Part shown: piece by piece, positions 5,174 to 57,019 of the stretch
How the letters are laid out: every line of letters begins with the position of its first letter
How positions within the stretch are numbered: the first letter of the stretch is position 1
NCBI GenBank assembly: GCA_000405225.1
Contig: ASMP01000001.1
Location: forward strand, 136,496-200,495
Direction: 5' to 3'
DNA length: 64,000 bases
Source: Nanoarchaeota archaeon SCGC AAA011-D5
GTDB taxonomy: Archaea; Nanobdellota; Nanobdellia; Pacearchaeales; GW2011-AR1
Position numbers and translations under genes: made by a program
Notes under the pieces: generated by a model
What the model saw: the letters and a program-made list of their open reading frames with translations, nothing else
What the model was told of the DNA's origin: nothing
The model's database searches: none

Positions 5174-5782
5174 TTACTTCAAAATCTTACCAGTTTCCAG
5201 ATGCCACAGGTATAAATCAAGCTCCCCGAGGCCCAGATTTGTTTTTTCAGCAATTTTTTCCAGAACAGACTCAATTTCAAGATATTTTTTTTCTGTCAGT
5301 GTTTTTGGCTTTTCAGTTAATCCGTTTCTAACAAGAAAGTCAATTATATGGAAATCTATTATTGCATAATTACTGAAACCTATATTGCGCAGGAAATGAG
5401 ACGCTTCTTTCATTCCGAGGCCCTTTATGTTTTTAACAAGAGATTCCCTGATATTTTCATCTTTAAGGTTTATTTTTTTGAAGTTTTCCCTTGCTTCAAT
5501 GATAAACTTTGCCCTTGAATTTGGAAACCTATGTCCCAAACGAGTCAATAATTTAGATAACTGTTTCTCAGATAAATGCAAGAAACCGTCTCCAATTTCC
5601 TTCTGTATTTTTATTCCGCCTCGCGCATTGAAATTTGCAGTAAGAAGGCAGAAGCAGAGCTCCTTGAAAATTTCCTCATTGGATTTTGCACCCAAGTCCC
5701 CAAATTCTTTCATTCTTTGGGAAATTATTTTGCTAATAGAAGAAACTTTCAGCTGCTCAATTTTGAAAATTATCTCTTTCAT
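5174..5782 (-). CDS. ogg: 8-oxoguanine DNA glycosylase/lyase, archaeal Ogg2-like HhH-GPD enzyme
   Basis: GLGMKEASHFLRNIG hairpin-helix with Lys and downstream AIIDFHI Asp; about 200 aa; 4-nt overlap with nth. Confidence 0.65.
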   Translation of the reverse strand: MKEIIFKIEQLKVSSISKIISQRMKEFGDLGAKSNEEIFKELCFCLLTANFNARGGIKIQKEIGDGFLHLSEKQLSKLLTRLGHRFPNSRAKFIIEARENFKKINLKDENIRESLVKNIKGLGMKEASHFLRNIGFSNYAIIDFHIIDFLVRNGLTEKPKTLTEKKYLEIESVLEKIAEKTNLGLGELDLYLWHLETGKILK

Positions 5783-6399
5783 CTTATTTTTCTGATGTTT
5801 TCAATGATTTTATCTTTTTGTTTCCTGCTTGTATGGGTTTTTCCAAAACGCACAAGAGTTAAATTAATTTTGTTCCAGTATTTTTTAGGGAATAGTCTCC
5901 TTAGCTCTTCCTCTACTTTATGGGGGTTTTTATTCCTTGCCCAGCCAAGTTTTCTTGAGATATAAAAAACATGCGTGTCAACAGGAAGCGCATCTTTTCC
6001 CTGTTCGGCTAAAAAAACATTTGCAGTCTTTCTTCCAACACCCGGAAGCGAAAGCAGCGCCTCAAAATCATAAGGAACTTTACCTTTGAAATTTTTAACC
6101 AGATATTGAGAGCATTTAATGATGTTCTTAGCCTTAGTCTTATAAAAGTTTACAGGCCTTATTATCTTGCTGATATTCTTTATCTTTCCTTTAGCCAGCT
6201 TCTGGGGATTCTTGTATTTTTCAAATAATTTTTCTGCTACAGGAATTGTTGTCTCGTCCCTGGTTCTCGCAGAAAGAATTGTTGATATAAGAATTTCATA
6301 GTCATTTTTCCAGTCTTCAGCAGCCAGACGCATGGGTCTTCCAAGCCCGGCAAGTTCTTTTAACTGTTTCATAGCTGTTTTTGTGTCCATTTTAAACAT
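5779..6399 (-). CDS. nth: endonuclease III-like DNA glycosylase without the C-terminal 4-Cys cluster
   Basis: ILSARTRDETT, LPGVGRKTANVFL (catalytic Lys), VDTHV (Asp); C-terminus has no Cys residues. Confidence 0.8.
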   Translation of the reverse strand: MFKMDTKTAMKQLKELAGLGRPMRLAAEDWKNDYEILISTILSARTRDETTIPVAEKLFEKYKNPQKLAKGKIKNISKIIRPVNFYKTKAKNIIKCSQYLVKNFKGKVPYDFEALLSLPGVGRKTANVFLAEQGKDALPVDTHVFYISRKLGWARNKNPHKVEEELRRLFPKKYWNKINLTLVRFGKTHTSRKQKDKIIENIRKIR

Positions 6400-6413
6400 A
6401 ATTTAAATCAAAA

Positions 6414-6426
6414 ACGCCCCGACCGA
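6414..6426 (-). repeat. copy A of the tRNA-Glu 3'-end core (plus-strand acgccccgaccga)
   Basis: 13/13 identity to the 3' end of both tRNA-Glu genes; lies between the toxin gene stop and the nth start. Confidence 0.8.
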
Positions 6427-6448
6427 ACTACGACAGGGCGTAGGACAT

Positions 6449-6772
6449 TTATGTAAATTTAAACAATTTTTCATAATCCTTATGATCCATCCAGTCAAGA
6501 ACTATGGCTAAAACTTCAACTTCATTATTTGTAATGGTATAAAGCAATCTCCAATCCTTTCTAAGATTATAAATCCAAAGATTATTTATATTATATCTCT
6601 GAATTAATTCTTTTGGAATTAGATTCTTTTTTACATTTCTTCCAAAGAAGGCATCTTGTCTTATTTTATTAAGAGCATTTTCTATTTCCTTAAAAAGTCT
6701 TTCATCTTCATCTTTTAGTCTCTCAAATGCTTCCTTCAAATCATTATCTGCGAAGATTACTTTGGATTCCAT
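6449..6772 (-). CDS. RelE/ParE-family toxin
   Basis: C-terminal LWIYNLRKDWRLLYTITNNEVEVLAIVLDWMDHKDYEKLF resembles the RelE/StbE pattern; 16-nt overlap with upstream partner. Confidence 0.6.
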   Translation of the reverse strand: MESKVIFADNDLKEAFERLKDEDERLFKEIENALNKIRQDAFFGRNVKKNLIPKELIQRYNINNLWIYNLRKDWRLLYTITNNEVEVLAIVLDWMDHKDYEKLFKFT

Positions 6773-7065
6773 TCCAGGTTTTTTCTATCTTTGTATTTTT
6801 TATATAATGCTGGATTCCAGATATAAACAACATATCCTTCATTATCATAAGCAATTTTTAATGTGCTTTCAAGGTATTCCATAATCACTTGAAAAGTTTG
6901 CCACATCACTTTTTTTGGTAGTTTATTAAAAAGCTCTGTTTTCTTGTAAGCACCAGAATTATCATCAATGAACTTTTCTACCATTAAAACAGTTTGAAGA
7001 GTTGGGCTTCTGGCTATCTCATTAGTTTCTGCATAAGTTTTCCTGCCCTTTATTTGCGGTTGCAT
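6757..7065 (-). CDS. putative antitoxin/partner of the RelE-like toxin
   Basis: Overlaps toxin start; start set to MQPQIK (7065) because a TTTATAAAG box lies about 25 nt upstream; no family recognised. Confidence 0.4.
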   Translation of the reverse strand: MQPQIKGRKTYAETNEIARSPTLQTVLMVEKFIDDNSGAYKKTELFNKLPKKVMWQTFQVIMEYLESTLKIAYDNEGYVVYIWNPALYKKYKDRKNLEWNPK

Positions 7066-7133
7066 TATAGTATCAATTGATATGACTTTATAAATCTTTT
7101 TCTTTTTCACCTATCTTTAACCTGAAGTTATAG

Positions 7134-7144
7134 CGCCCCGACCG
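7134..7144 (-). repeat. copy B of the tRNA-Glu 3'-end core (cgccccgaccg)
   Basis: 11-nt match at the boundary between the lipoprotein unit and the toxin-antitoxin unit. Confidence 0.6.
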
Positions 7145-7202
7145 TAACCAGTATAAAGTTTTACGGGTTAGGTACAATAAGGTGTAAGAAAGAAGTTTAG
7201 AT

Positions 7203-7733
7203 TTATTTTTTCTTTGTTTTGTTTGCAGAATCTAAATCTTTAAAATAAACTTCAGCAGCAACCAAATATCCTTCTACCCTAATGCTATTAACTTCTTGGA
7301 TATTATACTTTCCACTATTTACTATAGCCTCTAATCTTGGGTTAATCTCCTCTTGTATATTATTCAAGTGATTTTTATCACTATGAATAAAAATAACTCT
7401 TAATCTTGTATTATCACAATCTTCATCTTCAGCTACACTATACTTAACTTCCGCTAAAGTTAAATAAACATCTGAATAAGCAGTCTTAACAGAAATAATA
7501 TTATATCCTCCCCTATTGATAACATTTTCCAGTTTCTCTCTAATCTCCTTTTGTTGATTATTCCAGTGATTTTTATCACTGGTTATTGTCATAATCCTGA
7601 CGTTTTTTCCATCCTTTATAGTTTGACAAAAAACATTTTTTTGTTGTGTTGTTATAGTATCTTGACCACATCCAGAAAAAGCAAGTGCTCCTCCCAGAAC
7701 CAATGCAGCTAAAGTATTCTTTATTTTTCCCAT
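7203..7733 (-). CDS. lipoprotein with an internal two-fold domain repeat
   Basis: Signal peptide plus lipobox-like AFSGCG; repeated segments ITSDKNHWNNQQKEI...GGYNI and IHSDKNHLNNIQEEI...GKYNI. Confidence 0.6.
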   Translation of the reverse strand: MGKIKNTLAALVLGGALAFSGCGQDTITTQQKNVFCQTIKDGKNVRIMTITSDKNHWNNQQKEIREKLENVINRGGYNIISVKTAYSDVYLTLAEVKYSVAEDEDCDNTRLRVIFIHSDKNHLNNIQEEINPRLEAIVNSGKYNIQEVNSIRVEGYLVAAEVYFKDLDSANKTKKK

Positions 7734-7758
7734 AAATTATTTAAAAATTCTCTCTTTT

Positions 7759-7809
7759 TAAACTTTATGGTTTTGTGTTACTTTCAAGTTAAGACACGCC
7801 CCGACCGAG
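7759..7809 (-). repeat. copy C: tRNA-Glu 3'-end core (7796-7809) plus 38-nt trailer/promoter module (7759-7796)
   Basis: Core 14/14 identical; trailer 37/38 identical to 8302-8339 next to the real tRNA. Confidence 0.85.
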
Positions 7810-7865
7810 TGTGTATCAAAAGTGATACAAGCCCCAGATATTTAGAAAAGTTTAGAGAAGTAAAT

Positions 7866-8276
7866 CTAATGAATAATCTCTATATCATCTGGATCAACAA
7901 TTCCCAATCTATCAGAATTAAATAATTCTTCACCTGAAATCCTTCTCTTTAACCTCAATGGAAATCTTATTTTTGTTCCAATTTCAATAGTTGCTGCGAG
8001 ATTGTACGCTGTGTGGGATCCTGAACTTCCAGACATATCGTCTACATCCACCTCAATTGTATAAATCCCCTGTGGTGTTTCGACTCTTAATCCATAATTT
8101 GGATTTCCTAATTTAACTGACTCGTTTCCGAATAATGCTCCACTTGATTCTTCAATTCTTGAAATATTCCCATATTCACTAAGAACTCTTCCTTCCACAA
8201 AATTTTCAGGTTTTATTCCACAACCAACCACACCCAATGTCCCAGCCAAAATAAGGCTTGTTAATATTTTTCTCAT
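7866..8276 (-). CDS. small lipoprotein
   Basis: Signal peptide and LGVVGCG lipobox-like Cys; unrelated in sequence to the neighbouring lipoprotein. Confidence 0.6.
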   Translation of the reverse strand: MRKILTSLILAGTLGVVGCGIKPENFVEGRVLSEYGNISRIEESSGALFGNESVKLGNPNYGLRVETPQGIYTIEVDVDDMSGSSGSHTAYNLAATIEIGTKIRFPLRLKRRISGEELFNSDRLGIVDPDDIEIIH

Positions 8277-8341
8277 AAATTTTTGATGAGTTTCCTATTT
8301 ATAAACTTTATGGTTTTATGTTACTTTCAAGTTAAGACAAA

Positions 8342-8459
8342 CGCCCCGACCGAGATTCGAACTCGGGTCACGGCCGTGCTTCATCGCTTCGCTCTGAATC
8401 AAACGTCAAAGCGTTGCCATTTGAGAGGGCCGCATTCTTGGCCTCTGAACTATCGGGGC
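8342..8459 (-). tRNA. tRNA-Glu(CUC) with a 45-nt intron after position 37
   Basis: Hand-folded: GCCCCGA/TCGGGGC acceptor, D arm GTTC..GAAT, anticodon stem CGGCC/GGCCG, loop CTCTCA[intron]C, T arm CCGAG TTCGAAT CTCGG; exons nearly identical to the intronless UUC isoacceptor. Confidence 0.85.
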
Positions 8460-8460
8460 T

Positions 8461-8505
8461 TTGCTCCGGAGTTCTGGTCATTCAAGACCCATGAACTATC
8501 GGGGC
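8461..8505 (-). other. orphan tRNA-Glu 5' fragment directly upstream of tRNA-Glu(CUC)
   Basis: GCCCCGATAGTTCA (14/14) then a diverged D loop and GAATG, followed by the palindrome CTCCGGAG; no matching 3' half adjacent. Confidence 0.5.
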
Positions 8506-9002: not shown

Positions 9003-9161
9003 ATGGAAAGTGAAGCCGAATGTAAGAAATGCAAAGGAACAAGAAGAATCAGGGATAAAGACGGAACAGTTCATGTTTGCTATGACTGCCTTGAAAAAGG
9101 CAAGATGGACCAGCACGATAAAAACCCGAAAACAGCAGCAGATTACAGGATAAAATTATAA
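9003..9161 (+). CDS. small zinc-ribbon protein (52 aa)
   Basis: Not in track; hand translation MESEAECKKCKGTRRIRDKDGTVHVCYDCLEKG... with CxxC...CxxC. Confidence 0.4.
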   Translation: MESEAECKKCKGTRRIRDKDGTVHVCYDCLEKGKMDQHDKNPKTAADYRIKL

Positions 9162-32128: not shown

Positions 32129-32143
32129 ACGCCCCGACCGAGA
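32129..32143 (-). repeat. copy D of the tRNA-Glu 3'-end core (acgccccgaccgaga)
   Basis: 15/15 identity to 32739-32753 at the real tRNA-Glu(UUC); lies just beyond the MazF gene stop. Confidence 0.85.
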
Positions 32144-32158
32144 GTATAGAGAGCGTAG

Positions 32159-32491
32159 CTATTCTTTCAAGAAAGAAATTACTTTATTTACAATCTCTTT
32201 GAATTTTTCGGGTTTTAGGGAACCAATTTTATATTTTATCAATGATTTTTCAATAGAACCAATTTTATCAATTCTAATAAAACTTTCTCTCTTTAAATTA
32301 CCCCGCTTAAAGTCTTTATTTTCTATTTTTATCTCAACAGATTTCTCATAAGAGGAGCCGGTGATTTGATTAACTATTACGTCCTTGCCTTTAGGAATTT
32401 TAAGAATTAATACAGGTCTTCTTTTCGATTCCTTCAAACTTGAAAAAGGAAAATCTATGACAATTATATCTCCCTTTACAAGTCCTTCCAT
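32159..32491 (-). CDS. mazF: MazF/PemK-family toxin
   Basis: GDIIVIDFPF...KRRPVLIL...VNQITGS...ESFIRIDKIGSI pattern. Confidence 0.75.
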   Translation of the reverse strand: MEGLVKGDIIVIDFPFSSLKESKRRPVLILKIPKGKDVIVNQITGSSYEKSVEIKIENKDFKRGNLKRESFIRIDKIGSIEKSLIKYKIGSLKPEKFKEIVNKVISFLKE

Positions 32492-32694
32492 GCTTCATCC
32501 TCTTCTTTGTTAAGCCATGTTTTAGCAAAAGACTTTTCAGAAAGAATAGCGTCTTCAGGAATAGACTTTTTCAGAATTATTTCATCGTCTTTTCTGATTA
32601 CAATTAGTTTGTCTCCTTCATTAATCCCTTTACGTAGATCTAAAGGAATTACTACTTGTCCTCTTGAACTCATCTTTGTTGTATCAATTATCAT
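32476..32694 (-). CDS. AbrB/MazE/SpoVT-family antitoxin
   Basis: SSRGQVVIPLDLRKGINEGDKLIV swapped-hairpin motif; overlaps toxin start by 16 nt. Confidence 0.75.
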   Translation of the reverse strand: MIIDTTKMSSRGQVVIPLDLRKGINEGDKLIVIRKDDEIILKKSIPEDAILSEKSFAKTWLNKEEDEAWKDL

Positions 32695-32740
32695 AAATAA
32701 GATTAATCTTACTTCTATTTAAATCTTTGTTTTTTAGAAA

Positions 32741-32813
32741 CGCCCCGACCGAGATTCGAACTCGGGTCACGACCGTGAAAGGGTCGCATTCTTGGCCTCT
32801 GAACTATCGGGGC
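32741..32813 (-). tRNA. tRNA-Glu(UUC)
   Basis: Hand-folded 73 nt: GCCCCGA/TCGGGGC, anticodon stem CGACC/GGTCG, loop CTTTCAC, T arm CCGAG TTCGAAT CTCGG. Confidence 0.9.
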
Positions 32814-33024: not shown

Positions 33025-33660
33025 ATGAGAATGACACAAGGACTTGGAAGCTCCAACTGGCGCGCCGAGATGTGGGCCGAGATATTTGACAGAGCAAGAA
33101 AGAAGGGCAAAGTTTTCGAAAGGACTCTGGGCGAGCATAATTTTCAGTACGCGCTTATAAATTCTGCAGACAGATACGGAAGAATATCCGTCTCGACAAC
33201 AGGGGCGCAGTATCGCTACAGCGGGCGTTCGGTCACGTTCTGGATAAAGGACGAAGAAAGCGACGAGTTGCACGTTGGCGTATGTTACGGGCCAGGCCTG
33301 AATTTTGTATTTGAAGCCAACACTCCGGCGCCTTTCAGGGATTGTGTAGGGCTGCACGAGCACATAGAATCAAAGTTTCTGGGAAATCCGAAAAGCCACA
33401 CCCTTGCGTGCAGCGCGGAGCTCGGGGAAGTTTTCAGAAGGAAAACGAAGTTTGTCGGCGCCTACGCCAGATGGCTGGTTGAACTGCATGACAATTCTAA
33501 AACCCCTGAAAAGGGATATTTTACCCGTGCCGTGCCGGATTTCATGAGAATCTTAAGAGAAGGAAAATTATCTCCCTTGGAAATGCTGCAAGAATTCAAG
33601 GAGCGAGTAGATTCCATAAAATTTTTAAATGTCGCAGTGTCAAATAGACATCAAAGATGA
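33025..33660 (+). CDS. hypothetical protein in a conspicuously GC-richer segment
   Basis: 211-aa ORF; many GC-rich codons (gcg, cgc, ggc, acg) unlike its neighbours; its stop overlaps the 3' end of tRNA-Ile. Confidence 0.5.
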   Translation: MRMTQGLGSSNWRAEMWAEIFDRARKKGKVFERTLGEHNFQYALINSADRYGRISVSTTGAQYRYSGRSVTFWIKDEESDELHVGVCYGPGLNFVFEANTPAPFRDCVGLHEHIESKFLGNPKSHTLACSAELGEVFRRKTKFVGAYARWLVELHDNSKTPEKGYFTRAVPDFMRILREGKLSPLEMLQEFKERVDSIKFLNVAVSNRHQR

Positions 33661-33831
33661 GCCTGCTCGGATTTGAACCGAGGACCCCTGCCTCTCTTAG
33701 ATGAAAACCTCCTGTTGGTTTCCCACACTTCCAGCTTCCCAAGATTATAATCTTGGTATCTAAAAGATTCTAATCCTTATGAATCAGATTCCTATAAGAG
33801 CAGTGCTCTGACCAGGCTGAGCTACAGGCTC
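33658..33831 (-). tRNA. tRNA-Ile(UAU) with an intron of about 99 nt after position 37
   Basis: Hand-folded: GAGCCTG/CAGGCTC acceptor, A73, D arm GCTC AGCCTGGTCA GAGC, anticodon stem CTGCT/GGCAG, loop CTTATA[intron]A, T arm CTCGG TTCAAAT CCGAG. Confidence 0.7.
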
Positions 33832-50857: not shown

Positions 50858-51025
50858 TATTAATATTGAAGACAGAAGGTAAGATTAAATTAGGAGAGTA
50901 AGTATTAATTCTTAAATAGTTACAGAATAGAGGGAATGTTAAGTATTCGGGAGATGAATAAGGTGTTAAGGGGCGGGAGTTAGGAGTTTAATAATATTTT
51001 TAAGTAAGGTTAGTTTAGGTTATTT

Positions 51026-53485
51026 ATGCACGAATTACAAAAGATTAACACTCTTGGACTTGAAAATATTAACTATGCTATTGTTGAGAAAACTCGCCCT
51101 ATGATGTATAAGGCGATGAAATATTGGGGCAAAAAACCAAGTAACATTTTCAAAGATTATATTAAACATTATTCTAATAAAAATGAGATAGTTCTTGACG
51201 CTTTTGCGGGTAGCGGTGTTTGTCCTTTGGAAGCAATACAAACAGGCAGAAAGGCAGTAGCAGTTGATTTAAATCCAATTTCGGGTTTTATAACAAAGAT
51301 GTTGGCTACCCCCTTAAATATCTCAAAATTTAGGGAAGAATGGGTTAAAGTTAAAGCAGACTTTTGTAAGTTTGAAAAAGGAGCAGAATTATTTTTAACA
51401 ACTTGCCCAAAGTGTAAAAAACAGGCAAGGATAATTAATGTTCATTATGATGGAAGCCCAACAGAAATAAGATATAAATGTTCTTGTGAAAAAAAGAACG
51501 GAACCAAAAAAATAGATGATAATGATTTAACATTAATAGAGAAAGCAAATAAAACTAAAATAAGTTTTTGGTATCCAAAGGACAAATTTCCGAATACAGA
51601 CACTTTTGATGGGGCAAAAAAGAATGTAGGGGATTATTTCTATAATCTATGGACTAAAAGAAGTTTGTATTCTCTTGCGTATATGTTTAATAGAATTAAT
51701 GATATAAAAGATGAGAAATTAAAAGAGTTTTTCAAATTTGCATTTATTTCTATGCTTCATCTATCAACTAAAATGGTTTCTGCAAGAAGAGAAAAAAGTG
51801 AAAGACCAGATAGCGGAAGTTGGGGCAGACCTGCATATTTATTTCCAAAAAGGCATTTAGAACAAAATCCCTTTTTACTATTTGAGAGAGCAATAGACGA
51901 TAGACAAGGTATCGTAAAGGCAAAAGAAAGTTCAAATGAACTTTTAGATAATAAAACAAAATTTGCAAAGAATTTTGAAGATTTAAAAGATAATGATAAA
52001 AATTTGTTAATTTTGAAAAGAAACTCTATTGAACTATCTAAATTTATTCCAAATGAGAGTATAGATTTTGTTTTAACAGACCCGCCATACGGGGGATTAA
52101 TAAAATATTTTGATTTGAGTTCTATTTGGTCTATATGGTTAAAGGGTGAAGAGCAAAATAAAGAGTTTGATATTCCCTATGATGAAGAAATAACTCTTGA
52201 TAAAAAAAGAGATTTTGATTATTATGATAAAATGTTGTATAAAGCATTTTCAGAAGTTAATAAAATATTAAAGACTAATAGATACTTAATAGTTACATTC
52301 CATAATTCACAGCCAAGAATATTTAATTCAATTATGAAGTCTTGCGTTAATGCGGGATTTGTTCTTGAAGAAATCTTATTTCAACAAAATAAAAGGGCTT
52401 CTGAAAGTGGTGTTGCCAATCCGTGGGGGACAGCAATAAGCGATTTTTATTTAAGATTTAGAAAACCAACAAAAGAAGAGAAGAAGATTGAGGGATTAAA
52501 TAGAGATGGATTTGAAAAACTTGTTGTTAATTCTGCTAAAATTGTTCTTGCAAAAAGGGGACAGCCCAGCGAATTATACAATATTTTAAGCGGGGTTTAT
52601 ATGGAATTATACAAATACGGACAATATCTTAAAGCAGATACAACAGAAGATATTGCAGACATCTTAAAAAAAAGAATTGGAAAAGAATTTGTTTTAGTTG
52701 AAGCAGATGAAGAAAACATAAAAAAGGGAAAAAGATGGTGGTTTAGTGAAGAGGAAAAAAGAAAGCATAAATTAGAAACTCCCCTGTCTGATAGAATTGA
52801 AACTGCAATAATCCAAACATTCCACGATAAAATAAAAATTTCCTATGATGATATACTACAAACACTTTTTGTAGAATTTCCAAATTCATATACGCCTGAT
52901 AATAGTAGTATAAACAATTTAATAAAAGAATATGGAACTAAACAGAAAGATGGAACTTGGATGTTAAAGAGTAGTTTCAAAAAAGACGAAAGTAAGCATA
53001 TTGTTATTGAAAGAATTTTAGCAGAGATAGGAAAAAAACTTGGCTATAAAATTTGGTGTCCTGATAAGGGAAGAGATAATAGACTTCAAGAATTATGTGA
53101 AAGTCGTCTCGGTTTTGACTTTGAGGGCAAAGAAAGGGTTGAAAAAATAGATATTCTTTGGTTTAAAGAGGATAAGATTTATTATGCTTTTGAAGTTGAA
53201 AATTCTACTTCAATAACCTCTGCTTTAGAGAGATGTTCTAATTTACCAAATGGGGAAGATACTAAAAAAATGATTTTGATACCAAGTGAGAGAGCAAAAT
53301 TTCTTAATAGAAAAATAAAAGAACCTATGTTTAAAGAGAGATTTATTTTAGATAAATGGCGTGTTGCTTCTTATGAAGAATTAGAAAAACTATCAAATAA
53401 GAAAAGTATAAGTGAAGAAGACTTTGATTTGATTTTTTCACAAGCCCTAAAAATAAAAGAGGGCATCCAATCTAAACTTTTCTGA
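51026..53485 (+). CDS. Zn-ribbon adenine-type DNA methyltransferase (COG1743-like) fused to a C-terminal nuclease-like domain
   Basis: KYWGKKPSNI...VLDAFAGSGVCPLEA...AVDLNPIS (motif X/I), CPKCKK...CSCEKK ribbon, TDPPYGGLIKYFDLSSIWSIWL (motif IV); C-terminal IDILWF...YAFEVENSTS PD-(D/E)xK-like segment. Confidence 0.7.
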   Translation: MHELQKINTLGLENINYAIVEKTRPMMYKAMKYWGKKPSNIFKDYIKHYSNKNEIVLDAFAGSGVCPLEAIQTGRKAVAVDLNPISGFITKMLATPLNISKFREEWVKVKADFCKFEKGAELFLTTCPKCKKQARIINVHYDGSPTEIRYKCSCEKKNGTKKIDDNDLTLIEKANKTKISFWYPKDKFPNTDTFDGAKKNVGDYFYNLWTKRSLYSLAYMFNRINDIKDEKLKEFFKFAFISMLHLSTKMVSARREKSERPDSGSWGRPAYLFPKRHLEQNPFLLFERAIDDRQGIVKAKESSNELLDNKTKFAKNFEDLKDNDKNLLILKRNSIELSKFIPNESIDFVLTDPPYGGLIKYFDLSSIWSIWLKGEEQNKEFDIPYDEEITLDKKRDFDYYDKMLYKAFSEVNKILKTNRYLIVTFHNSQPRIFNSIMKSCVNAGFVLEEILFQQNKRASESGVANPWGTAISDFYLRFRKPTKEEKKIEGLNRDGFEKLVVNSAKIVLAKRGQPSELYNILSGVYMELYKYGQYLKADTTEDIADILKKRIGKEFVLVEADEENIKKGKRWWFSEEEKRKHKLETPLSDRIETAIIQTFHDKIKISYDDILQTLFVEFPNSYTPDNSSINNLIKEYGTKQKDGTWMLKSSFKKDESKHIVIERILAEIGKKLGYKIWCPDKGRDNRLQELCESRLGFDFEGKERVEKIDILWFKEDKIYYAFEVENSTSITSALERCSNLPNGEDTKKMILIPSERAKFLNRKIKEPMFKERFILDKWRVASYEELEKLSNKKSISEEDFDLIFSQALKIKEGIQSKLF

Positions 53486-54293
53486 AATTAAGGATATATT
53501 GATGATGATGATTTATTTTGTAAGCATAGGGGTAACCAAAAGGATATAATGGTTTGCTATTTTGCATTAAGACCACAGACCCAGAAAATTCAAAACCTAT
53601 TTTTTGCATTAACTTAATAACATCTCCGTGAGCATTAGTTTCTTTTTTCTTGACTGTGAAATCGCTTATAATTATTGAGCAGTATTTATTTTCTCTTAAT
53701 CTTTTATAAACTTCTTTCATAATTTTCCCAAATAAGACTAAAAAATCACTATAAGATTTTTGATTTCCTACATCATCAGGATATTCGGAATAATATTCAA
53801 CCCCCTGCCTCCTTTGACTACCATCTGACCTTATGCCCATTCCCTTGTTTCTTAAAATATTGTGATAAGGCGGAGATGTTATACAATAATCAATTTTATC
53901 TATTTCAGGAATTTTCTTTAAGGAATTTCCTTTAATTATTTTAATATGCCCATTTATTTTTACCCCTAACTTTTTTAATCTTCTTTTTGCAAGTTCGCAA
54001 TATTTTTTACTTAAATCTATTCCTATGGCTTTTCTGTCTTCTAATGCAGAAGCGATTAAAGTTGTCCCACTACCCATAAAAGGGTCTAAAACCAGCATAT
54101 CCCTCTTCGTAAATAATCTTATTAATTTTCTTATGTCTTTTATAAGAAATGGAGCAGGATGTTCAAATGCGTCTTTATCTTCCGCACATCTTTCACTAAT
54201 CCAAACACTTTTAGTTAGTTGTAACCATTCCTTTCCTGTCAGATTATTTATTTTATTTCTTTTGTCGTATTTTCCTTTCATTTTTCTTAACAT
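53472..54293 (-). CDS. SPPY-type (N4-cytosine-like) DNA methyltransferase, motif I before motif IV
   Basis: HPAPFLIKDI...VLDPFMGSGTT and CITSPPYHNI; start uncertain (ATG at 54320, 54293 or 54281); 14-nt convergent overlap with the 819-aa gene. Confidence 0.75.
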   Translation of the reverse strand: MLRKMKGKYDKRNKINNLTGKEWLQLTKSVWISERCAEDKDAFEHPAPFLIKDIRKLIRLFTKRDMLVLDPFMGSGTTLIASALEDRKAIGIDLSKKYCELAKRRLKKLGVKINGHIKIIKGNSLKKIPEIDKIDYCITSPPYHNILRNKGMGIRSDGSQRRQGVEYYSEYPDDVGNQKSYSDFLVLFGKIMKEVYKRLRENKYCSIIISDFTVKKKETNAHGDVIKLMQKIGFEFSGSVVLMQNSKPLYPFGYPYAYKINHHHQYILNFRKV

Positions 54294-54420
54294 AATTTTT
54301 AGTAAATTTAGAAAGAACATCTGTTGCAGTGGTATCTAATTCAAGACAAATCATCTTGAACTTTTTCCAAACATCATCTTCTATGTAAAAATTATGGGGT
54401 CTTTTCTTATCCCTTTTCAT
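54253..54420 (-). CDS. ribbon-helix-helix protein (55 aa), candidate controller of the methylase
   Basis: Not in track; MKRDKKRPHNFYIEDDVWKKFKMICLELDTTATDVLSKFTKNYVKK...; overlaps the methylase start. Confidence 0.5.
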   Translation of the reverse strand: MKRDKKRPHNFYIEDDVWKKFKMICLELDTTATDVLSKFTKNYVKKNERKIRQKK

Positions 54421-54490
54421 ATATAATCAAAAGAATGGTAATTTATAAAACTTCTCTCCCTCTCTCCGTCTCTCCAAAGTAGTTATAGAA

Positions 54491-54628
54491 TTATTTGCCT
54501 TTCTTCAAATTCTCTTTAATGATTTTCTCTAACCAATCAGAAATATCTATCTTCTGCCTTATGCAGAATATTTTAACGTCTTCCCATAGTTGAGGACTAA
54601 CCTTAATGCTTGTTGTCTTCCTTTCCAT
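54491..54628 (-). CDS. ribbon-helix-helix protein (45 aa)
   Basis: Not in track; MERKTTSIKVSPQLWEDVKIFCIRQKIDISDWLEKIIKENLKKGK. Confidence 0.5.
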   Translation of the reverse strand: MERKTTSIKVSPQLWEDVKIFCIRQKIDISDWLEKIIKENLKKGK

Positions 54629-54726
54629 AGAGTATTATGGTATTATTGCTTTATAAACATTTATATTCAGTATTATATACTACCCAATTACTATAAGTTT
54701 AAATACTATCAGTATTATAGTAGTAT

Positions 54727-55014
54727 ATGGATAGCACACAAGACATTAAGCAATTCTCAAATACAAGAGAGCAAAGGGCAAGAGCCATATTAGAGATAGG
54801 AAACCCTGAAACTCTTGACGAATTTACCTATTTAGTTCCCTCTCAAAATTCAGACAGAAAATATAGGGTTACGCATATAGACGCTTATAGTTGCGAATGT
54901 GAAGACTTTAAGAGAAGATGTCAGGGAAAAAATCTTTATTGTAAGCACATAAAGGCAATAATTCTATTCCAAAGAATTAAGCAGAAATATGAAGTCAAGC
55001 CAGAAGTAGAGTAA
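54727..55014 (+). CDS. SWIM zinc-finger protein
   Basis: YSCECEDFKRRCQGKNLYCKHIKA (CxC...CxH). Confidence 0.55.
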   Translation: MDSTQDIKQFSNTREQRARAILEIGNPETLDEFTYLVPSQNSDRKYRVTHIDAYSCECEDFKRRCQGKNLYCKHIKAIILFQRIKQKYEVKPEVE

Positions 55015-55911
55015 GAAATAGAGTTAATCATAGACACGCCACAAAAGGACTTATGCCCTGAATGTAATTCTGAAAATCTGATTAAATCAGGGATTAGAAA
55101 AACAAAGATAGGCACAAAGCAAAGATATGAATGTAGGAATTGTCATAAGAGGTTTGTATTAAGTCCAATAAAGAACATAAAAGGCAACACTAAATTAGTT
55201 TGTCTTGCTATGGATTGTTATTATCGTGGTTTGTCTTATAGAGATATAAGCCATCAATTTAATCAGTTCTATGGTTTAAAGATTTCACACGTTACAATAA
55301 GGGAATGGGTTTTGAGATTTTCAAGAGTTATGGAAAAATACTCTGAAACAATAAAGCCACAGATTAAAGGAACTTGGAACGCAGACGAAACTTTGGTTTT
55401 AACAAAGCGTGGAAAGAATAAGCAAAATACCAACTTTGATTATGTCTGGAATGTTATGGATAATAAAAGCAAATTCCTTTTAGCGTCTGAATGTTCAGGG
55501 CGTTCAAGAAGTTCAAAAGACGCACAGAAAGTTATGACAGAAGCATATCAACAAAACGGAAAAATCCCATTTCAGATAATTGTTGATGGTTACGCTGGTT
55601 ATCAAGATGGAGTTAGAAAGACATTTAGGAATTGGGGTAACGAAAGAAAGGTTAAATTTACATCAATTAAAGGGCATAGGAAAGAGATAAACAATAACGC
55701 AATAGAAAGCCATCACTCACATCAAAAGGAATTTCAGAAAGTAAGGCGTGGAATAACAAAGGTTCAGGATTATCAAGATGGCTTTAAGGTATTCCATAAC
55801 TTTGTAAGAAAGAACGCAAGACAGGGCTTAACTCCTGCGGATAAGGTTGGAGTTGGAGTAAAAGGAAACGCTTGGGAAACTATGCTCTTGAAAGGGTTGA
55901 AATCATCTTAA
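55015..55911 (+). mobile_element. IS6-family-like DDE transposase with N-terminal zinc ribbon; first ATG only at 55210, inside the conserved HTH
   Basis: CPEC...CRNC ribbon, HTH LSYRDISHQF...HVTIREWV, DDE context WNADETLV / IIVDGYAGY / NNNAIESHHSHQKE. In frame with the SWIM ORF across the TAA at 55012-55014. No terminal inverted repeats found. Confidence 0.65.
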
Positions 55912-56041
55912 CTTTCTTAACCTTCTTATTATGTTTCTTATTTCTACAATATCCCTACGATTAATTTTTTCTGAATGAGCAATCCTATTTCTTCTTTCAA
56001 TAAATAGTCTTTTTAATATTTCTCTTTCAATATCTTTCCTA

Positions 56042-56401
56042 TTACTTCTTTTTCTTATTACCATTATCTATTCCAAAACTCATATCTAAAATAGTAGTCA
56101 ATTCCCGATTGGAAATTTTCTCTTCTACGAGTTCATTATTTAATTTTTCAGTTTTATCTTCAAGTTCTTTCATTAAATCTGAATATTCTTTTTTTATTAC
56201 TTCTTCTGCATAATAATTACCAATTATATAAATCGCAGGGAGCACTATGACTTCTATGCTTAAAAACAAAACAGCATTATCTGGATAAAAACGACTTAAC
56301 CCAATAAATGTTACTGCTGTAAGAGTTGCAATTATGGTAACCCAAATTCTTATTCTAAGCATTCCCATAATTTCAATAATCTCTTTAATATATTTAAACA
56401 T
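56042..56401 (-). CDS. two-TM membrane protein with coiled-coil tail
   Basis: 119-aa ORF with hydrophobic helices followed by a charged helical C-terminus. Confidence 0.4.
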   Translation of the reverse strand: MFKYIKEIIEIMGMLRIRIWVTIIATLTAVTFIGLSRFYPDNAVLFLSIEVIVLPAIYIIGNYYAEEVIKKEYSDLMKELEDKTEKLNNELVEEKISNRELTTILDMSFGIDNGNKKKK

Positions 56402-56521
56402 TACTTATAACTCCCGCAACTTAACAGAAGAGGAGAAAACGACTATAACTCCCTAATTCCTAACACACTACAGAATAGAAAGATTTATTAACACTTCATT
56501 TACTGAATAATATTAAGTAAA

Positions 56522-56881
56522 ATGGATAGAAAAAATATTATAATTGCATTATCACATCATCAAGATATACAAAAAGATGTTGATGCTTTAGTATTTAGAA
56601 TAGCTGGAATTGGAAAAAGAAATCCAATGATTGACAGACTTCAAGAAGTAATTGATGCTGAGGAAAAAGTAATCAACTTTATTAAAGATTCTAAAGAAAT
56701 TTGGGAAGATACAAATAGAGTGAGATTATATGCTTCCGCGTCTCTAAAAGATTATCTTATTTCTTTTAAAGAATATGAAAGATTATGGGCTTCAAGAAAA
56801 AACGAAGGAACTCCAGAAAAAGATTGGTATAAAATGCAGGATGAATTAGTTAAATATATTCGCAATTATTCTTTTAGATAA
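56522..56881 (+). CDS. hypothetical protein
   Basis: 119-aa ORF; no motif. Confidence 0.4.
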   Translation: MDRKNIIIALSHHQDIQKDVDALVFRIAGIGKRNPMIDRLQEVIDAEEKVINFIKDSKEIWEDTNRVRLYASASLKDYLISFKEYERLWASRKNEGTPEKDWYKMQDELVKYIRNYSFR

Positions 56882-57019
56882 AATTGAATAAAATCTTTCT
56901 TTAATATATCAATAAGTGAGTGTGAGAATATTGGCTTGACAAGAATTAAAATAAGGTAACAAAACAATGTGCGAGTGGAATGAGCGAACGTAATATATAA
57001 TAAAATTACAATAAACTAT

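Follow-up and report, generated by a model that had tools for sequence, protein, structure and literature searches.

Cis-mobilizable elements (CIMEs) are bacterial units that have no integrase and retain both attachment (att) sites, attL and attR (PMC6323972). In the tycheposon islands of Prochlorococcus, serial integration at tRNA genes is accompanied by partial tRNAs and decayed elements (10.1101/2020.12.28.424599). Archaeal elements, too, are known to integrate in tandem and to lose their integrase (PMC8371274, PMC6563490), the smallest reported thaumarchaeal cryptic element being 2.6 kb long and encoding an integrase (PMC6563490), and archaeal integrons depend on IntI and attC (PMC9668308). 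A review of archaeal tyrosine recombinases is silent on DPANN archaea (PMC8371274), and the literature that we searched yielded no description of tRNA-gene integrative elements in DPANN, or of arrays such as the one reported here. We analysed a 64,000-nucleotide stretch of the genome of Nanoarchaeota archaeon SCGC AAA011-D5 (hereafter the window). With moderate confidence, we read its positions 6412-8352 as three miniature integrase-less cassettes in tandem, placed there by tyrosine-recombinase integration at the 3' end of tRNA-Glu(CUC) and served by a DPANN integrase encoded elsewhere.

CIMEs and the accretion arrays of streptococcal integrative and conjugative elements (ICEs) resemble this array in that att-flanked units without integration or transfer genes stand in tandem at the site of an integrase-bearing relative. 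As in a CIME, equivalents of attL and attR are retained and the integrase is absent. CIMEs, however, are bacterial, usually several kb long and tied to conjugative elements, whereas the units considered here measure 0.15-1.7 kb, carry single genes, occur in DPANN archaea, target a tRNA 3' end, have short, conserved arms and lack a known vehicle for transfer. Tycheposon islands share with the window the use of tyrosine recombinases at tRNA genes, newcomers that push older units inward, and the presence of partial tRNAs and degenerate elements. Tycheposons differ in carrying integrase and replication modules and in being much larger; the window units have none of the integrase and replication or packaging modules that are the tycheposon hallmark, hold one or two small accessory genes and are associated with a different, archaeal integrase family. 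Archaeal tRNA-integrating elements (cryptic elements, proviruses and integrated plasmids) likewise employ tyrosine recombinases and are flanked by direct repeats of the tRNA end. Such direct repeats, a regenerated tRNA and an empty attB are all found for the window array, which has no integrase of its own and whose units are 0.55-0.72 kb long, in contrast to the 2.6 kb of the integrase-encoding thaumarchaeal element.

The array is delimited by the word CGCCCCGACCG, which occurs six times exactly in the window against 0.07 expected from dinucleotide-preserving shuffles, with plus-strand starts at 6415, 7134, 7797, 8342, 32130 and 32741. These copies are the 3' ends of the two tRNA-Glu genes and four co-oriented displaced copies downstream of them, and the word was not found elsewhere in the window. 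Consecutive copies are 719, 663 and 545 nt apart at the first site (repeat family D6) and 611 nt apart at the second. A first-pass annotation, made from the sequence alone, had reported that the tRNA-Glu 3' end recurs three times downstream of the intact gene, and the copies are present where it placed them. Its identity lengths hold for displaced copy 1 (7796-7809, 14 nt, the boundary between cassettes C1 and C2) and displaced copy 2 (7134-7144, 11 nt, the C2/C3 boundary), but displaced copy 3 extends over 15 nt at 6412-6426 (12 nt of tRNA plus 3 nt of shared flank) rather than 13 nt. Two more copies had been overlooked, at 32130 and at 32741, the latter being the 3' end of tRNA-Glu(UUC). All these features, like nth and the cassette genes of the window described below, lie on the minus strand.

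The intact tRNA-Glu(CUC) gene occupies 8342-8459 (Rfam RF00005, 48.5 bits) and contains a 45-nt intron (exon 1, 8421-8459; intron, 8376-8420; exon 2, 8342-8375); its last 11 nt, at 8342-8352, form the att core. This intron-bearing gene was missed by default ARAGORN and by Rfam gathering thresholds and was recovered with the ARAGORN intron option (-i) and permissive Rfam filters. On the chromosomal side, nth (5779-6399), which encodes an endonuclease III-like protein (Pfam HhH-GPD, 1.2e-23), follows the last displaced copy as had been claimed, and is itself followed by ogg. In the Logan assembly of SRR3927433 the entire array is contained in one 1958-bp contig identical to window positions 6410-8367. 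Since the order was thus assembled independently, the internal arrangement of the array is not an artefact of one assembler.

Comparison with relatives locates the insertion. Relatives of the Nth protein place the window among DPANN archaea labelled Woesearchaeota, Pacearchaeota or Nanoarchaeota. In the closest of them (locus L001; Nth 87% identical), the same upstream genes are followed by an intron-less tRNA-Glu(CUC), with which the window gene aligns, and nth starts after 13 nt. The flank that follows the tRNA in L001 is homologous to the flank that follows displaced copy 3; an insertion of about 1.93 kb has therefore taken place exactly at the 3' end of the tRNA, and the tRNA-Glu(CUC) at 8342-8459 is the regenerated tRNA, the equivalent of attL. 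Because of the same homology, we take displaced copy 3 to be the original tRNA 3' end beside its original downstream flank, the equivalent of attR.

The first-pass annotation had proposed that syntenic relatives be examined for an empty tRNA-Glu/nth junction and for different cassette content, and we found both. L291 is also empty, with 14 nt from tRNA-Glu(CUC) to nth, and both L001 and L291 are syntenic with the window on the two sides of the site. With the upstream 84-aa gene as anchor, a metagenome scan revealed the L291 site and others. Those in L289/L292 and L288/L290 are empty, with 41 and 111 nt between tRNA and nth, respectively. At the orthologous locus of L295 (the same contig as L083), three units of 555, 1660 and 640 nt each end in a core, the last of which encodes MazEF. 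In L299, MazEF precedes a 205-aa gene that ends in a core, and L337 has a 3.6-kb unit of four genes that ends in a core 200 nt before nth. L291, L295 and L299 are from Hainich aquifer samples. More distant orthologous loci with 0.6-4 kb between tRNA and nth were not counted as cassettes: they hold mostly ordinary metabolic genes without cores, an arrangement that reflects divergence of gene order.

These empty sites bear on the proposal that the GC-rich word is no recombination scar but a conserved signal for regulation or RNA processing between ordinary chromosomal genes, for example a terminator or a processing site that resembles a tRNA. A hairpin precedes some copies, its 3' strand running into the core in a manner that mimics a T-arm, and the fold z-score is below -1.5 for 9 of 29 displaced copies. 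Against this, the nearest relatives lack both the genes and the extra copies, a 5' acceptor strand that could complete a minihelix is missing, no RNA family in Rfam matches inside the cassettes, the hairpin tendency is weak (mean z -0.77) and the word is confined in the window to the places listed above. We regard a spacer function as very improbable. Hairpins before the cores were also considered as attC-like features; given their weakness and inconsistency, they were not used as evidence.

The ends of the units are conserved where their genes are not. C1 (7810-8341) and C2 (7145-7795) share 75 nt at 85% identity, a stretch that starts at the core, includes the TATA box and extends into the first codons (repeat D1), and the first 26 nt of this 5' arm read TGTCTTAACTTRAAAGTAAYACAAAA. 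In C1 the arm, a putative promoter of the form TGTCTTAACTTGAAAGTAACA...TTTATAAA, lies at 8298-8339, and in C2 it lies at 7759-7796. Within 3.1 Mb of sequence the 5' arm occurs four times (C1, C2, L295 unit A and the 205-aa unit of L299), each time immediately behind a tRNA-Glu end, whether intact or degenerate. A 3' arm, CCTAACCCGTAAA(A)CTTYTATACT plus five bases followed by the core, occurs three times in the same 3.1 Mb: in C2 (CCTAACCCGTAAAACTTTATACTGGTTA, 7145-7172), in unit B of L295/L083 and in L299, each time flush with the core. By BLASTP, the cargo genes of the cassettes that share arms are unrelated. C2 and the L299 unit therefore have both ends in common but not the gene. Conserved ends with exchangeable cargo would be expected of discrete mobile cassettes and not of random deletion scars. 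Neither the C2 3' arm nor the C1/C2 5' arm had an exact match in IMG/VR viral contigs, and the 3'-arm pattern, the only arm scanned in genome_contigs, matched there only in L083.

The similarity between C1 and C2 could also mean that both descend from one unit duplicated in place by unequal crossing-over between cores and then diverged. In favour of this are the shared 75 nt and the alignment of their signal peptides, and successive units in L083 and L226 have their first 25-30 nt after the core in common. The mature C1 and C2 proteins, however, are unrelated and have separate sets of homologues, and the same 5' arm stands ahead of unrelated genes in two other genomes. Duplication would also leave C3 and the initial insertion relative to L001 unexplained. 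We consider in-situ duplication improbable.

To place the array in a wider context, we scanned for tRNA-Glu 3' ends and obtained 118 loci, nearly all of them DPANN; 21 contain two or three same-strand core copies, spaced by 30 to 3738 nt. Over 2.66 Mb of DPANN sequence, 30 displaced cores each follow, on their own strand, a tRNA that ends in the core, and a lone copy at the end of a contig is the sole exception to this linkage. The order from tRNA to displaced copy is kept throughout these 2.66 Mb and is never reversed. Cargo across loci includes Fic proteins (L088, L100, L147, L174, L210), MazEF, RelE-like pairs, a deaminase, Lrp-like regulators and small membrane proteins. No full-length integrase lies in any interval between core copies.

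The two tRNA-Glu genes draw on the same kinds of unit. Locus identity was assigned by synteny, tRNA-Gln and tRNA-Thr marking the CUC gene and tRNA-Ile the UUC gene. MazEF, RelE-like pairs and Fic cassettes were each found at both loci in different genomes: MazEF is at the UUC gene in the window and at the CUC gene in L111, L295 and L299; a gene pair like that of C3 is at the CUC gene in the window and at the UUC gene in L174; and Fic units occur at both. In the metagenome-assembled genome (MAG) CAZRBZ01, a 145-nt unit without a gene is 100% identical behind both tRNA-Glu genes (contigs L096 and L162), and the outer flanks are unrelated. Gene-less units of 30-231 nt between tRNA-end copies were also observed in L136, L169, L183, L163, L179, L187 and L157; they may represent cassettes without cargo, scars of excision or genes for small RNAs.

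An integrase family that fits such insertions is present in DPANN genomes. In L199 a gene matching Pfam Phage_integrase (1.1e-9) begins 263 nt after a displaced core. DPANN genomes contain 163 or more members of its family (61-87% identity), frequently two in the same genome, and the full-length protein has about 385 aa. The gene starts some 80-125 nt beyond, and on the same strand as, a tRNA gene for Glu(UUC), Asp(GUC), Ser or Gln, and its downstream neighbours vary. L199, L210 and L226 have integrase-less units interposed between the tRNA and such an integrase gene. In L268, tRNA-Asp is followed by an integrase gene, three further genes and a core at 3.3 kb, and then by an integrase-less unit of 1.6 kb and another core. 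An identification of the tRNA-adjacent integrase as XerA was rejected on account of its scores of 38-44 bits against the NF040815 cut-off of 220, its multiple copies in several genomes and its variable downstream genes.

The array can also be compared with integrons. In both systems small, mostly co-oriented cassettes accumulate at one site, the cargo is enriched in toxin-antitoxin genes and conserved ends enclose variable genes; in some of the relatives, a tyrosine recombinase gene also stands beside the array. A genuine integron, with attC-bounded cassettes recombined by IntI, would indeed present a co-oriented array of small toxin-antitoxin-rich cassettes, as reported for archaeal integrons (PMC9668308). 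Yet the boundaries here are direct repeats of a tRNA 3' end, which serves as the attachment site, rather than attC inverted repeats with R'' and R' boxes; each cassette has its own TATA-like box and the common promoter Pc is missing; IntI is absent from the window; and with the integron-integrase model TIGR02249 (cut-off 265) the DPANN recombinase reaches no more than 17.2 bits. We give almost no credence to a genuine integron, and the integron-like cassette array of the first-pass annotation holds only as an analogy.

A more serious alternative is decay. According to this explanation, the units are what deletion has left of integrase-bearing elements of at least 3 kb, and are now immobile scars that retain a gene. 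Elements of that kind exist, the 3.3-kb one of L268 being an example, and both integrase loss and tandem arrays have been described for archaeal elements (PMC8371274) and tycheposon islands (10.1101/2020.12.28.424599). The first unit of L174 opens with the integrase upstream region and a stub of 33 integrase codons, and L088 has the first 35 nt after the tRNA, and only those, in common with the integrase-bearing tRNA locus L241. Some integrase-less units are therefore deletion derivatives. On the other hand, random deletion should not yield the same junction between core and 5' arm four times and that between 3' arm and core three times, around unrelated cargo and in three genomes. Decay does not predict MazEF units bounded core-to-core in three genomes at different loci, nor an identical 145-nt unit at two tRNAs of one genome, and tblastn found neither an integrase nor an integrase remnant in the array at 6412-8352. 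We judge decay to be a rather unlikely explanation of the window array.

The stub of L174 and the short match of L088 nonetheless count against the cassette reading, as do the following observations. All the comparative material consists of metagenome assemblies, in which repeats can be mis-joined. A search for attR behind 28 tRNA-integrase loci returned repeats of at least 11 nt within 8 kb only in L268. In other metagenomes, the genes for homologues of C1 and C2 proteins have neither a tRNA nor a core nearby (for C1, none of 17 homologues in DPANN metagenomes adjoins a tRNA), and these genes therefore exist outside cassettes too. The 64-kb window contains no tyrosine recombinase detectable by tblastn with five DPANN integrases (best E-value 0.24), which bears out the earlier statement that the cassettes carry no integrase. 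Finally, the Logan assembly of SRR3927433 showed no excised circle, empty site or within-population variant. Its contig breaks at the tRNA are mostly explained by repeats of 30-34 nt common to both tRNA-Glu genes and are therefore no evidence of excision. Near nth, by contrast with these repeat-associated breaks, the Logan contigs that flank a 17-nt gap (6393-6409) neither overlap nor abut, and no repeat of k-mer length is present; this gap may reflect strain-level polymorphism just upstream of nth.

Taken with these reservations, integration of integrase-less cassettes at the tRNA 3' end remains the reading that we favour. A cassette would comprise an att core and one or two accessory genes enclosed by short arms, of which the 5' arm holds a TATA box. 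Since each insertion would supply a replacement tRNA 3' end and shift the old end, with everything behind it, downstream, the copy beside nth would be the original tRNA end and the cassette beside the tRNA the newest. One cassette pool would also use tRNA-Glu(UUC), whose core is the same. Integration would be performed by a DPANN tRNA-targeting integrase that comes from the same genome or from a transient element, in the past or at present; we infer which integrase acted, that single cassettes move independently and that mobility continues. The uninserted site would read ...GAATCTCGGTCGGGGCGTTTTTGATTTAAATT, circles formed by excision of a single cassette would have the junction CTGGTTACGGTCGGGGCGTGTCTTAAC (C2) or CGTAGTTCGGTCGGGGCGCTATAACTTC (C3), and a circle of the whole array would have the junction CGTAGTTCGGTCGGGGCGTTTGTCTTAAC. 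The first-pass annotation had offered serial trans-mobilised insertions at a tRNA-end att core as one possibility. Empty sites, variable content, cassette types shared by both tRNA-Glu genes, the integrase family and the absence of an integrase from the array all argue for serial insertion; mobilisation of the cassettes in trans is what we infer, with indirect support from the fitting integrase family, the mixed array of L268 and the identical 145-nt unit at two tRNAs.

The contents of the three cassettes agree with the earlier description of unrelated accessory cargo (a small lipoprotein, a two-domain lipoprotein, and a RelE-like toxin with its partner), and every array gene reads away from the tRNA. 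C1 encodes a putative lipoprotein of 136 aa with a signal peptide and Cys (7866-8276), and a short hairpin precedes its next core. The C2 product (7203-7733) is a putative lipoprotein of 176 aa, also with a signal peptide and Cys, that contains an internal duplication of 66 aa (repeat D4). Neither protein matches a Pfam family. C3 (6427-7133) has a TATA-like box, an overlapping gene pair and a hairpin, CTACG-N6-CGTAG, before the core. The first gene of the pair (6757-7065; 102 aa) starts at ATG 7065, not at GTG 7110 of the open reading frame (ORF) list, and its product had no match in profile searches of protein families. The second (6449-6772; 107 aa) overlaps it and is RelE/YoeB/ParE-like, with matches that all fall below cut-off: Pfam YoeB (7.4e-5, 23.1 bits), Pfam ParE (2.7e-4, 21.9 bits) and NCBIfam RelE_StbE (4.5e-5, 23.9 bits). 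A PADLOC scan of the cargo returned nothing significant.

Each unit was also said to have its own TATA-like box, and one is present 19-20 nt upstream of the first ATG in C1, C2, C3 and the MazEF unit of the second site. This spacing fits leaderless archaeal transcripts, the promoters being predictions. Separately, homologues of the C1 gene in two other genomes (L281, 4001-4405; L283, 4001-4465) lie between inverted copies of a roughly 35-nt motif, ccgaaaattcgttgttatcgtagttgttgaaaaa, an arrangement that may represent a different, inverted-repeat-based route for moving a C1-type gene.

The second attachment site is tRNA-Glu(UUC) at 32741-32813 (ARAGORN and Rfam), which has the same 3' core. Behind it lies a fourth cassette of 0.6 kb (32144-32740) with a TATA-like box, mazE (32476-32694; Pfam MazE_antitoxin 2.9e-8, 34.0 bits against a cut-off of 24.7) and mazF (32159-32491; Pfam PemK_toxin 3.6e-13, 50.1 bits against a cut-off of 23.1), followed by a displaced tRNA-Glu 3' end with 15-nt identity (32129-32143). 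With both families above cut-off in an overlapping pair, 32159-32694 is a type II toxin-antitoxin module. MazEF modules are likewise bounded core-to-core in L111 and L295; in L187 the module follows a displaced core, and in L299 it stands after the tRNA and before a degenerate core. The 3' arms of the MazEF units are related in two pairs, the window with L111 and L295 with L299. A tRNA-Ile(UAU) gene with a 99-nt intron lies at about 33658-33831 on the minus strand, was detected only with the ARAGORN intron option, being missed by the default tRNA scan and Rfam gathering thresholds, and is linked to tRNA-Glu(UUC) in several relatives.

Several further observations concern the tRNA-Glu(CUC) gene itself. 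Among close relatives in these DPANN lineages its intron varies from 0 to more than 200 nt (for example in L297, L308 and L357); it is missing in L001 and measures 45 nt in the window and 75 nt in L083. Such differences between close relatives indicate quick intron turnover at this gene. A 27-nt copy of the tRNA-Glu 5' part, GCCCCGATAGTTCATGGGTCTTGAATG, lies on the minus strand at 8479-8505, 19 nt upstream of the gene. It spans the acceptor 5' strand and D-arm, is about 83% identical to tRNA-Glu and is kept at the same place in L001; L278 comes from the same sample and is hence not an independent occurrence. The copy could be the scar of an old event on the 5' side, a partial duplication or a leader element. 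In L299 the resident tRNA-Glu(CUC) (7512-7683) ends in CGGCGGGGGCG, with a matching altered 5' strand, GCCCCTG, and the outermost displaced copy (9029-9039) reads CGGTCGGGGCG. Integration may have replaced the acceptor 3' strand there, with a compensatory change of the 5' strand afterwards.

Elsewhere in the window, the sole transposase-like ORF lies about 47 kb from the array. It encodes 233 aa (55210-55911) and belongs to a low-GC island at 51000-57000 (GC 0.27-0.31) that also holds an 819-aa methyltransferase-like fusion, a 282-aa methyltransferase and a SWIM-type zinc-finger ORF (54727-55014). This is probably a separate restriction-modification or insertion sequence (IS) island.

DPANN archaea are host-dependent, with genomes of about 1 Mb, and little is understood of the routes by which they acquire and trade accessory genes. 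Our results suggest that the region behind tRNA-Glu is a recurrent hot spot, where one- or two-gene units are gained and lost among closely related genomes, bringing toxin-antitoxin pairs, Fic proteins and surface lipoproteins. The integrase family found beside tRNA genes in these lineages is widespread and lineage-specific. Displaced CGGTCGGGGCG copies are a ready marker for flexible genes in DPANN MAGs, with the caution that assemblies break at sites of displaced tRNA ends. Even on a conservative view, these are the smallest att-flanked units seen at an archaeal tRNA. Displaced core copies also follow tRNA-Asp genes, and we tentatively raise a broader possibility, about which we remain doubtful: that DPANN archaea (Woesearchaeota, Pacearchaeota and Nanoarchaeota) hold an independently evolved, integron-like capture system. 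In it, a lineage-specific, tRNA-adjacent recombinase family would use the tRNA 3' end as an analogue of attI and the arms as an analogue of attC to integrate, excise and rearrange small self-promoted cassettes, which would be shared among tRNAs of identical acceptor end: Glu(CUC), Glu(UUC) and possibly Asp. Should the cassettes indeed move independently, integron-style gene capture would have been invented a second time and separately, with a tRNA end as the docking site, and such a system would give these ultra-small genomes a dedicated route for sampling accessory genes.

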